This document shows, one piece after another, positions 11,326 to 39,338 of a stretch of DNA of 64,000 nucleotides. The stretch covers positions 1,054,001 to 1,118,000 of the forward strand of contig NW_027191453.1 in NCBI RefSeq assembly GCF_011745625.1, given 5' to 3'. Position 1 is the stretch's first letter. Each line of letters starts with the position of its first letter. A program made the translations under genes and the position numbers. The DNA is from Cladosporium halotolerans. Lineage: Eukaryota. Under the pieces are notes generated by a model. The model saw nothing but the letters and a program-made list of their open reading frames with translations, was not told where the DNA came from and ran no database searches.

Positions 11326-11984
11326 AGAGAGTCGAGCCAGATTCGGGATGAGAGCTAGATGGAGAAGTAATGTCTAATGGCTTGCACAAGCAGCAAGATG
11401 CTCACGCTCGTTCATGCAACAGCAAGGAGATGGAAGGAACCATGATTTCAAGAATAATGTATAATGTCTGCTCAGAGTAAACAGCTATTACATGGCATTG
11501 ACAATGATGAATGATCTCAAAGACGACTCATCCATATTCTTGTTCGGGCTTGGTGGCCATCCACAAGAATGCCAGCGACCAATGGCGGAAAGTTCTGAAC
11601 CTAAACCACTCGCACTGGCGACAACATTATCGAGCGGCAAAAGACGCCTCCGCGTCTGTGAAATAATGTGACTGCATGCGCGATATTTTGAAGAGCTGTC
11701 ACCGTCGCTAACGCACGGCAAAAGACTGCGAGACGCTGCGCGCGGCCACGTGCCAGGGTGTTTTGCCTCGGCTCGCCAGACTCCGAGGCATGCGACCTCT
11801 CAATTGCGGAGATGATGATCAGACTGCCTGCCCTACCAACCTAGGTTTGAATATCACACCAGTCCATACCTTAAACTTGTCTCTTTGTGCCACTGAACCT
11901 TCGTCCTGTCTATCTCATCCTACAGGTCGAAATACATTGCCTGAAACTCCCGTTCAGTACACATACAACACAGTTGTCGCGATC

Positions 11985-23800: not shown

Positions 23801-25164
23801 CCGTACAAAGGTCGGCGTGGCCGGATGACGCCTCTCCACCGGGCTATCGCTGAATTGGATCCCTCGAGCGCACTCGCGCGCTCAACGCCGCCAGTAGCTC
23901 ACGTTTGGGCCACGACCCCAGACACCCTGGAGTCGGTTAGCAAGACTTGGGTGTTTGGGTGGCGGCCAACGACAGGAGGATGAGGTGACATTCACGGCGC
24001 GGGCGGCCGGGGCGATCACCCGCGCACACAGCGAGACTGACTTCGGCTGCGGTTTCCAGCATGGCCGGACGCAAGTCCTCGTATTGACTGTTGTTCTATG
24101 TTGCAAAATGGAGATGTTTGTGGCTCGCGTGAAGCCCAGTCCGGATGCTGCGGTCGGATTCAGCAGCCCTACGACGAGCATCTGGCAGTTGGGCGCAATT
24201 TGGCTCCAAAATCTCGTGTCGGGGGAAGGCTTGGTAGAGCTTGGCTCTCGCGTGCGTGTTCATCACTTCCACTGCAGATCTGCCGGGCTTCAGCCAGGCC
24301 GCGATTTCTGGCAGACTGTTGGCTGTCTTTGGCCCGAACTCAGGCCCACCTCCAGATATCGCGCGTCAGGTTTCTCTCTCTCTGCGGCGCAGGCCTACCT
24401 CTCAACTCGGGTATCCGGCAATCCGTGGTCAACGCAAGCGAGCGAGACACCGAAACTGTAGGCGTGAGACCGTCTCACCGACATAGCACCTTGCAGGCTA
24501 TCATGCTCTTGAGTGCAGGCACATGACAACCCATTGGCATCAGACCGTTCCCGGCGCTGAAGGGCACCCGCCCGCCCTCTTCTGGAAGCGCACGGCAGAC
24601 CCCGAGTAGGGCCAACCCTCGATGTCAGTAGCGTAGCCTCCACGGGTCGGCGACCGTCCATAAATTTTCGGCCCTCAACGCACCTACCTCGCGACGGCGC
24701 CGCCTTGACCCAGGTTACCTCCACAAGCACGGGCCCATGAGCATTGTGGGGCGCATCACGGTGCGTCTCTGGTTCCCATGTCGTGGCGGGATGTGAAGAG
24801 GCGTGCTGTGATGCCGATCAAAGCATCCGGCAATGTCATACTGGTCAGGGCTCATTTCGAAACCCACGCCCCATGCCCTCACTCCGTAATTGTGGGGAGG
24901 TAGGTGGTCAGCCATTATATACTGCTCTGGCATGCCCTCGATTTCTGAGCAGACCCGTCGTTTCCTCCTCCATCGTCCCCTCTCCCTGTCACTCACCTTC
25001 CGCATCCCTTCTCATTGGACGTACAGAGCGGTCAGAGTCGCTTGACGACGACGCTCCGCAACAAGACTATCTGCTCCTTCATTGGAATAGGATAGCACCA
25101 CTACTGCAACAACAACGACAATCAGCAGCTGAGGATCCGTTCAACGGATCAGCCTTCCATCGCC

Positions 25165-37916: not shown

Positions 37917-39338
37917 TCACTCCACGCTGGTGGGTATCTTGACTTCGCCTCTCTTCCGCTCTGTGTGCGGCATGCCGTAACGGTGGCCAACTCCCTTGCT
38001 GCTCCTGCCGTCCTTGCCGACGTTCTCAGCACTGATGTCCTGGAACTTAAAGTCCCAGCGTCTCCCTTGTACTGTCCTCTGCGTACGTGCCTTCCACTCT
38101 TTTTGTTTCCTCTCCTTCTCCACAGCCGCAGCGTGCTCCTTCTCTTCTATCTCGGCAAAGCGGTTGAGACGCTCGGTGCGGGAGACATCCTCTGCGTTCC
38201 AGCGCTCCAGCTGCACGAGTTGAGGGTGAGGAATACGCTTGTCGGCAGGCAGAAGACTGGGCGAGAAAGCCTTTGCGGCATCTTCACGAGTGAAGTTCCG
38301 AGACTCGGATGTGGGGTAGAACAGCTGTTGACGAGTGGCGGGATGCACTGGAAGGTCATTGATGCTCTCGTGGGCTACCATGTTTGAGCCATCTTGCCTC
38401 AAAGGTGTTGTGGGAAGCATGGCCAAGACAGCCTCGTTGTAAGGTGCAGCCAATTGTTTGCCCTAGACGATATGTTAGCAAATTGGTCTGGAAGAAGACT
38501 GCTAAATAGTAGAGTTGAGGTTGCGCTGTAGGATCAGAGAGGCTCGCATGCATTTGTTTTGTAACCATGTAGGTGTCTTAAAGACTAATCGATTTTTAAA
38601 TTTAAATCATCACAATGACAGCTGGGGAAGTGTTAGAGAAAATGAAAGGGTTGAACTCACTTCTTCGATCCACTGCTTCTCGATAGTCTTCAACCGGATG
38701 ACGGCAGCCACTCGGCGCATGTCTACACCATACGCCGCACTGACACCCTGTAGATCCATCTTCCTCACGACGACCTGCCGGTAAAGCTCTTCTCTCAGTT
38801 CTTCCGAGAGCACTGCTTCACTCTTGAACGCTTGATTCAGCGGGAATGGGTAGAGGTCAGACAATCTCTCTTTAGGCGGTATTCTGGCCTCTGCGATTCG
38901 CTTGGCGCGAGCTTCAGCACGAACTGCCGCCCTGGAAGCCCTCTCTGCTTCGTCGACACCCTCTGCTTCTTCTTGTTTAACAACTTCTGCCTCCCGAGCA
39001 TCTTCAGTCTCTCGAGCTCGCTGGGTTGCCTCTTCACGTTCAGGCCAGCGTCTCATGTTTCCCTCCTTATCATACGCGGACAAGTAGTTCGTAGAGCCAG
39101 GGGAGGAACGTCGGAATCGGAAACCGGGACCAGCCAGCCATGCATCCATATCGCGTCGTAGAAGGGTTTTACGCCGTACGGGGGCTTTACCTGCCTCCTT
39201 GTTGCGCTCAAGAGCAGCAGGGGATTTGTGGAAAGAGCGCGAAAAGACATGAGGCTCGGCGACAGCCTGTGGTCTTGAGCGGAGACATTGGCATGCCGAC
39301 GGCTGCGGCAGCCTCTGAGGCTGTAAACGCGGAGGCAT
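37917..39338 (-). CDS. MRPS35: Mitochondrial small-subunit ribosomal protein mS45 (Bot1/MRPS35 family)
   Basis: STNYLSAYD, PFPLNQAFKSEAVLSEELREE, YGVDMRRVAAVIRLK, HESINDLPVH, FYPTSESRNFTREDAAKAF and VGHRYGMPH motifs; intron 38464-38660. Confidence 0.88.
38530..38618 (-). ncRNA. Intronic box C/D snoRNA with two LSU-rRNA antisense guides
   Basis: On the minus strand: C box GTGATGA (38607-38613), guide TCGATTAGTCTTT + D'-like AAGA, guide TGCGAGCCTCT + D box CTGA (38534-38537), terminal stem GCTGT/ACAGC. The guides complement the conserved LSU segments AAAGACTAATCGA and GAGGCTCGCA. Confidence 0.82.

Follow-up and report, generated by a model that had tools for sequence, protein, structure and literature searches.

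The 64,000-nucleotide (nt) window analyzed here (Cladosporium halotolerans contig NW_027191453.1, positions 1,054,001 to 1,118,000; assembly GCF_011745625.1) contains on its minus strand the gene for the mitochondrial ribosomal protein mS45 (Bot1p/MRPS35). The single intron of this gene (38463-38660) holds a 98-nt element (38525..38622, minus strand) that is very probably a genuine intron-encoded box C/D small nucleolar RNA (snoRNA), the Dothideomycete counterpart of Neurospora crassa Nc CD39 and Schizosaccharomyces pombe snR83. Exon 1 (38661..39338) runs from the ATG at 39336-39338 to its last codon, GAA, and was identified by positions 2-64 of Pfam family PF12298 (Bot1p) and by tblastn conservation in metagenome loci. 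Exon 2 (37917..38462) includes the stop codon TGA at 37917-37919 and was identified by PF12298 positions 67-160 and by named homologs. PF12298 is split over the two exons with scores of 82.4 and 70.2 bits against a cut-off of 23. The homologs carry the name '37S ribosomal protein S35, mitochondrial' or, for a single one, 'mitochondrial 37S ribosomal protein mS45'. A sequence-only reading of the window had named mS45 as the host gene, and these matches agree with it. The closest named homologs over exon 2 come from Cladosporium fusiforme (78%) and then Rachicladosporium (71%). The Cladosporium fusiforme homolog is annotated as a 1470-residue protein with PF13289 and PF12298, compared to 320-420 residues for the other homologs, and this entry is probably a fused gene model in that annotation.

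The intron is 198 nt long, with the 5' splice site GTGAGT at 38655-38660, a branch site TGCTAAC at 38474-38480, and the terminal AG at 38463-38464. In 114 of 120 homologous proteins, no residue intervenes where the exon 1 portion meets the exon 2 portion, and the splice is therefore taken as modeled. The sequence-only reading had recognized the intron as 38464..38660 (197 nt); the intron itself stands, and its 3' end was placed one base short. The intron was also described as AT-rich, and its GC content is indeed 0.389 compared to 0.56 in both exons.

All of the snoRNA elements proposed by the sequence-only reading (the stem, GTGATGA, AAGA, ATGGTTA, CTGA, and both guides) are present on the minus strand between 38622 and 38525. 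The 5' arm of the terminal stem, GCTGT (38618..38622), is followed by CATT and the C box GTGATGA (38607..38613). A 14-nt A/T spacer leads to the D' guide TCGATTAGTCTTT (13 nt, 38580..38592), a perfect complement of AAAGACTAATCGA in large subunit (LSU) ribosomal RNA (rRNA). Next come a putative, degenerate D' box AAGA (38576..38579), the bases CACCTAC, and the C' box-like ATGGTTA (38562..38568), which lies within the block CATGGTTAC. A second spacer of 13 nt precedes the D guide (38538..38548), in which TGCGAGCCTC (38539..38548) makes 10 Watson-Crick pairs with LSU GAGGCTCGCA and the final T at 38538 faces a G. The D box CTGA (38534..38537) ends 71 nt before the 3' splice site and is separated by TCCT from the 3' stem arm ACAGC (38525..38529). 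In both guides, one spacer base stands between the guide and its own box. The assignment of AAGA as the D' box is our own reading of the published Nc CD39 pairing, which ends in the same way. AAGAC is invariant in the family; the ATGGTTA block is found in the family alignment as well as in Nc CD39 and Schizosaccharomyces snR83. The two stem arms pair as predicted by the sequence-only reading, and the minimum-free-energy fold contains this 5-bp stem, set off from the C and D boxes by a 4x4 internal loop. The C box to D box span is 80 nt in the window sequence, so the previously predicted RNA of ~85 nt is plausible, and the mature RNA produced from 38525..38622 would probably measure ~85-98 nt. 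The intron is a multiple of three in length, yet an in-frame TGA (38610-38612) that overlaps the start of the C box comes 16 codons after exon 1. A retained intron would therefore cut mS45 short ahead of the second half of the Bot1p domain.

The pairing of the two guides was tested on surrogate fungal LSU rRNA. The surrogates are fungal ribosomal DNA (rDNA) contigs found within a prokaryote genome collection by scanning for the two rRNA segments quoted in the sequence-only reading. There are 22 rDNA contigs that carry GAGGCTCGCAGCGG, a gap, and then GGCGAAAGACTAATCGAACC, and the gap is always 38 nt. The two segments lie inside eukaryotic LSU rRNA in all five of the contigs scanned with Rfam. 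These 22 contigs (L002-L023) are filed as bacterial or archaeal (Streptomyces, Haloferax, Erythrobacter metagenome-assembled genomes, and others) and represent contaminating fungal rDNA; Rfam reports eukaryotic small subunit, 5.8S, and LSU rRNA on the five examined. An IMG/VR contig (L001) has the A-site segment only and was not used further. In the longest LSU pieces (L013 and L021), each guide has exactly one perfect complement, which on L013 lies at 836-845 for the D guide and at 892-904 for the D' guide. The perfect 13-nt and 10-nt complements previously described are thus unique matches in the surrogate rRNA. The rule that the modified nucleotide faces the fifth base upstream of the box (D+5) places the modified bases at G839 (D guide) and A896 (D' guide) of L013. 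They are 57 nt apart; the two segments exist as the sequence-only reading quoted them, and its estimate of about 50 nt between them was too short. Based on these pairings, the D' guide TCGATTAGTCTTT predicts 2'-O-methyladenosine (Am) at AAAG[A]CU in LSU AAAGACTAATCGA, and the D guide predicts 2'-O-methylguanosine (Gm) at the second G of GAG[G]CU in LSU GAGGCTCGCA (target nucleotides in brackets). Both nucleotides are those named in the sequence-only reading, and the A site is the published D' target of Nc CD39. The A predicted from the window lies 9 nt after the G targeted by the snR60-type guide. The predicted G is the equivalent of N. crassa G840, an assignment made through the Nc CD25 pairing that fixes A846 as the A of UCGC[A]GCGG (PMC2780460 Additional file 4), and it corresponds approximately to S. 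cerevisiae G860 by offset.

Shuffle controls were used to estimate how often such an arrangement occurs by chance. The window contains 13 RTGATGA...CTGA skeletons, compared to an average of 4.3 after shuffling. A perfect rRNA complement of at least 10 nt ending 0-2 nt before CTGA is found in only one of the 13, the element at 38525-38622, and the mean in shuffled windows (n = 100) is 0.02. A complement of at least 13 nt anywhere in the RNA appeared in 8 of 2000 shuffles of the 98-nt sequence. When position is ignored, complements of at least 9 nt appear in 1380 of the 2000 shuffles and of at least 10 nt in 490. Finding a 10-nt complement at some place in an RNA of 98 nt is thus unremarkable; what matters is its position. 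These data bear on the idea that boxes and complementarities came together by accident in an AT-rich intron from which no RNA is made. The lack of an Rfam match would fit such an accident, but the shuffle controls, the 71 conserved loci with diverged flanks described below, and the sequence homology to two cloned snoRNAs make a chance origin already very unlikely, to the point of being negligible. The other 12 skeletons (for example 11812-11896 on the plus strand and 24160-24266 on the minus strand) have no rRNA complement longer than 10 nt and none beside the D box. The surrogate rRNA lacks the last ~800 nt of LSU, so guides aimed there would have been missed, and the comparison covered rRNA targets only; the skeletons of the window may thus include another snoRNA, for instance one with a small nuclear RNA or transfer RNA target.

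The conservation of the element was determined with one metagenome contig scan using the pattern TGATGA, gap, CGATTAGTCTT, gap, GCGAGCCTC. The scan returned 71 loci, which together with the window make 72 copies with 49 distinct cores, or 59 distinct sequences when 30-nt flanks are included. Several features that the pattern did not demand are fixed. TCTGA directly follows the D guide TGCGAGCCTC in all 72 copies, so that guide and D box are always one base apart; each guide core is preceded by a T, and AAGAC follows the D' guide and one variable base. The block CATGGTTAC, also absent from the scan pattern, is nearly invariant among the copies. The first base of the C box is a purine in 69 of 72 copies (A in 65, G in 4, and C in the remaining 3). 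By comparison, the 30-nt flanks of the 59 unique sequences are only 30-50% identical. Aligned across related introns as the sequence-only reading had suggested, the boxes and guides are conserved in 72 copies and the flanks have diverged. Stems of at least 5 bp close 23 of 58 distinct flank pairs, compared to 6.8 expected with the 3' flank shuffled and 10.1 with the flank of another locus, and none of 500 control runs reached 23 stems. The stem sequences differ by lineage (GCTGT/ACAGC, GACTTT/AAAGTC, ACACT/AGTGT, CGCTTC/GAAGCG, and others), a pattern that reads as covariation. In about a quarter of the sequences (16/59) the stem is weak or absent, with 2-3 bp. Frozen boxes and guides with a free remainder are the usual signature of a guide snoRNA.

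Two further observations concern the conserved blocks. The base at 38580, just before AAGA, is a T that pairs with the rRNA in ~60% of the copies; the others have G or C at this position. Many of the G/C copies have an extra 5' T on the guide (TTCGATT...) that would restore 13 pairs, and this may be compensation. A contact between AUGGUU of the C' block and AACCAU of the rRNA just 3' of the D' target was considered and rejected. It is only 6 nt long, overlaps the guide duplex by 1-2 nt, and is on the wrong side to extend that duplex coaxially; complements of 7 nt are as frequent as expected by chance. Since S. pombe retains the block CATGGTTAC as well, a C' box specific to the family is the better interpretation.

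The snoRNA is linked to the same host gene across these loci. In 70 of 71 loci, a tblastn comparison detected mS45 matches around the snoRNA and on its strand: an exon-1-like sequence upstream, an exon-2-like sequence downstream, or both. The 48 distinct introns for which both exons are available (window included) all end in AG. Their lengths range from 175 to 244 nt with a median of 195 (47 of the 48 introns, those with a 5' splice site found by pattern). The median distance from the 5' splice site to the start of the C box is 47 nt, which is also the value in the window. From the end of the D box to the 3' splice site, the median is 70 nt (range 62-101, 48 introns), compared to 71 nt in the window. 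Intronic snoRNAs of N. crassa have the same kind of 3' splice-site distance constraint (PMC2780460). Exon 2 is 41-83% identical to that of the window across the loci, and the host proteins are closest to those of Dothideomycetes, Helotiales, Lecanoromycetes, and Sordariomycetes. For example, one host protein (L034) is 76% identical to Bisporella (Helotiales), another (L065) is 68% identical to Toensbergia (Lecanoromycetes), and a third (L048) has Sordariomycetes in all but the last of its named matches listed, at ~46-55%. The only locus of the 71 without a significant mS45 match, L033:1534-1610 (+), has a complete snoRNA. Its sole match, 'SDLYPFFPIQQ' (expect value, E = 0.22), lies downstream of the snoRNA, and the upstream open reading frame resembles a PHD-finger protein. 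The cause could be another intron, another host gene, or a degraded gene.

A linkage this tight could also mean that the conserved block is a cis-acting element of mS45, involved in splicing control or regulation of the host, with only a secondary resemblance to a snoRNA. Its occurrence in one and the same mS45 intron in 70 of 71 loci, the constant distance to the 3' splice site, and a reading frame that would end at the TGA inside the C box upon intron retention are all compatible with this idea. However, conservation falls precisely on the C, D', C', and D boxes plus two rRNA complements, not on splice signals, and a fixed 3' splice-site distance is known for intronic snoRNAs (PMC2780460). 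The N. crassa and S. pombe homologs are also present in the cell as stable small RNAs (PMC2780460; PMC4138321). A cis-regulatory block therefore has little probability, and the element is best regarded as a box C/D snoRNA.

The double-guide snoRNA proposed by the sequence-only reading fits the boxes, spacing, stem, guides, and comparative conservation. Several results weigh against this interpretation. The 98-nt RNA is not more stable than its shuffled versions (z = 0.62). Box C/D snoRNAs usually fold no better than shuffled sequence. The putative D' box AAGA and C' box AUGGUUA depart from CUGA and UGAUGA and are degenerate, and both are invariant or nearly so in the family. Rfam 15 reports no family at the gathering threshold in the window and none in 20 of the 71 related loci; between 38300 and 38800, the only match with E up to 10 is a chance long noncoding RNA hit (E = 8.6), and there is no rRNA gene match in the window. 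The pairing partner was surrogate fungal rRNA, not the rRNA of this organism. The conservation of the D guide is partly built in, as the scan pattern required 9 of its 10 bases (GCGAGCCTC), and neither of the published relatives, Nc CD39 and snR83, has the D guide of the window. The predicted G site is in no N. crassa, S. pombe, A. fumigatus, or T. rubrum table compared (PMC2780460, PMC4138321, PMC2377427, and the available portion of PMC3890542). It is also not in the portion of the main text of 'The fungal snoRNAome' consulted, a comparison outside which the supplements of that paper lie.

The last of these points raise the possibility of a real snoRNA with a single working guide. Only the ancient D' guide would then direct methylation, at the A site, and the D side would be non-methylating, given a marginal 10-bp duplex, or would make a folding or chaperone contact with pre-rRNA. 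The D' guide is common to Nc CD39 and snR83, the D-side sequences differ, the G site is missing from the four sets of published tables, and, when position is ignored, chance often yields perfect 9-10-nt complements between a 98-nt RNA and 4.5 kb of rRNA, as the 1380 of 2000 shuffles with at least 9 nt illustrate. Against this, the match ends one base before the D box in 72/72 copies, and the T of the tenth pair is invariant even though the pattern did not demand it. The D guide is also unchanged in hosts that resemble four fungal classes and whose mS45 exon 2 is 41-83% identical to that of the window, in a context where the adjacent spacer is variable, and several accepted guides in the N. crassa table have 10/0 pairing (PMC2780460). 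A single working guide is thus unlikely. The conservation of the D guide looks selected rather than accidental because its tenth base and its one-base spacing to the D box are constant, and because it is kept from Sordariomycete-like to Dothideomycete-like hosts while the adjacent spacer drifts.

A double-guide snoRNA in this intron suggests the following series of events. Based on general box C/D biology, the snoRNA would be co-transcribed within the mS45 pre-mRNA, and Snu13, Nop56, Nop58, and fibrillarin/Nop1 would bind the C/D and C'/D' motifs as core proteins. The RNA would then be freed by splicing, debranching, and exonuclease trimming to the terminal stem. The D' guide would pair with LSU AAAGACUAAUCGA and lead to 2'-O-methylation of the A in AAAG[A]CU (N. 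crassa 26S-A897, S. pombe 25S-A949). The D guide would pair with GAGGCUCGCA, 57 nt upstream, and lead to methylation of the second G in GAG[G]CU (N. crassa G840). In each duplex, fibrillarin would methylate the rRNA nucleotide that faces the fifth guide base before the D' or D box, as in other box C/D particles. The sequence comparisons show the anatomy, the pairing with surrogate rRNA, the conservation, the family membership, and the linkage to the host gene; expression in C. halotolerans and methylation at both sites are inferred.

The kind of RNA is not new, since it is an orthologue of a described and cloned fungal snoRNA family; only the target of the D guide and the constancy of the host gene are possibly new. 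This guide may define an unreported Gm at the N. crassa G840 equivalent. In this tentative scenario, an ancient snR83/CD39 scaffold acquired the guide before Dothideomycetes, Leotiomycetes, Lecanoromycetes, and Sordariomycetes diverged. A replacement on the branch toward Neurospora would have come later, and the snoRNA would meanwhile have been kept in one mS45 intron. The differing D guide of Neurospora would then be a case of guide replacement, a process described as common in fungi in portions of PMC2780460 and of 'The fungal snoRNAome'. The D guide is unlike those of both relatives and does not vary among hosts that resemble four or more fungal classes, and for these reasons it predicts a lineage-specific Gm, in an LSU stretch that clusters fungal-specific methylations (N. 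crassa A846, A856, G888, and A897). The analysis annotates a previously unlisted snoRNA in a Dothideomycete. The Nc CD39/snR83 family is missing from Rfam 15, and the 49 distinct cores could seed a model. The pairing of a cytosolic-ribosome guide with a mitochondrial-ribosome gene is unusually stable and could be used to probe whether such linkage is regulatory or merely historical. In the tentative scenario above, keeping the snoRNA in this intron would hard-wire production of a guide for the cytosolic ribosome to the expression of the mitochondrial-ribosome protein mS45. A snoRNA specialist would be little surprised by either the predicted Gm or the stable pairing, as intronic snoRNAs and lineage-varying D/D' guides are well documented in fungi.

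The membership of the element in a known family is evident from its comparison with Nc CD39, which was made by eye, as was the comparison with snR83. Nc CD39 (GenBank EU780962; Liu et al. 2009, PMC2780460) is a 73-nt, intron-encoded RNA obtained from a cDNA library. Its targets are 26S-Am897 for the D' guide (13/0) and 26S-Am375 for the D guide (PMC2780460 Table 1), and the D' pairing is given as UUCGAUUAGUCUUGAAGA against AAGACUAAUCGAA (PMC2780460 Additional file 4). The RNA reads UGAUGA..UUCGAUUAGUCUU-G-AAGAC..CAUGGUUAC..CUGA (PMC2780460 Additional file 1), and Table 1 of that paper lists S. pombe snR83 as its homolog. Nc CD39 and the window sequence share, in order, the C box, an A-rich spacer, (U)UCGAUUAGUCUU, a variable base, AAGAC, a short loop, CAUGGUUAC, a D guide, and CUGA. 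They have the same D' target, the A in AAG[A]CU that is 26S-Am897. They differ in length (73 nt for Nc CD39 compared to 80 nt from C box to D box in the window) and in the D guide, which is CCUUUUUUCAA (Am375) in Nc CD39 and UGCGAGCCUC (G840 equivalent) in the window.

S. pombe snR83 (AJ617351) is an intronic RNA from a nuclear small-RNA cDNA library that was assigned to 25S-Am949, and the text names 25S-Am949 among 'the methylation sites identified' (PMC4138321). The same guide, AAGAC, and a GUGGUUA or AUGGUUA block occur in the snR83 RNAs of S. pombe and two other Schizosaccharomyces species (PMC4138321). snR83 shares the D' guide core AUCGAUUAGUCUU-G-AAGAC with the window and has GUGGUUA as its C'-like box. 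The 12-nt D' core UCGAUUAGUCUU plus AAGAC is identical in the window, Nc CD39, and snR83, and the C' block is CAUGGUUAC in the window and in Nc CD39, CAUGGUUAU in S. octosporus, and UGUGGUUAA in S. pombe. The C box of snR83 is AUGAUGC compared to GTGATGA in the window. Its D-side sequence has no assigned target and is unrelated to that of the window, so the D guide of the window is found in neither published member. snR83 is listed on chromosome III, and S. pombe bot1 is, we assume, on chromosome II, which would mean a different host gene for snR83. Lineage-varying D-side guides are common in fungal C/D families according to the portion of 'The fungal snoRNAome' consulted, and the differing D guide is therefore not taken to exclude membership. 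The same portion treats Nc_CD_39 (its snoStrip name) as a family, to which a Candida albicans snoRNA is linked by its target-binding region. Two Pezizomycotina double guides that appear there, Nc_CD_17 and AM921920, were considered as relatives and rejected on the basis of their different targets.

The sequence-only reading had not recognized its two targets as the standard S. cerevisiae snR50, snR60, or snR72 sites, and this is correct: the A site corresponds to 25S-Am949 of S. pombe and 26S-Am897 of N. crassa, and it is reported to be missing in budding yeast, plants, and humans (PMC2780460; PMC4138321). The snR60/Nc CD48/U80 family modifies LSU Gm908 in S. cerevisiae and Gm888 in N. crassa, 9 nt upstream of the A site. 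A897 is 9 nt after Gm888 in N. crassa (PMC2780460), and A949 is 9 nt after Gm940 in S. pombe (PMC4138321). The CD39 D' target duplex AAAGACUAAUCGA and the snR60/Nc CD48 D-guide duplex AUGGGGGCGAAAGACUA have 7 nt in common, AAAGACU (PMC2780460). snR60/Nc CD48/U80 is a different snoRNA family with different modified nucleotides from those of the window. Since the two duplexes share these 7 nt, CD39-type and snR60-type snoRNPs (small nucleolar ribonucleoproteins) cannot sit on pre-rRNA simultaneously. S. cerevisiae snR50, which we take to be assigned to Gm867, presumably acts in the same rRNA stretch as the D guide of the window. Nc CD25 (26S-Am846) pairs with UCGCAGCGGUUCU in that stretch, and A846 is 6 nt downstream of the predicted G (PMC2780460). 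Both Nc CD25 and snR50 are different snoRNAs with different nucleotides from those of the window. The D-guide duplex of the window overlaps the Nc CD25 duplex UCGCAGCGGUUCU, and with such overlapping duplexes several guides compete for the same ~70 nt of pre-rRNA and must act in turn.

A narrow literature search found no paper describing the pairing of mS45 with a box C/D snoRNA. The arrangement in the window has its closest parallels in the intronic box C/D snoRNAs of vertebrates, Drosophila, and N. crassa, which likewise lie singly in introns and keep a constrained spacing to the 3' splice site downstream. Unlike intronic box C/D snoRNAs generally, the snoRNA of the window resides in a mitochondrial ribosomal protein gene.

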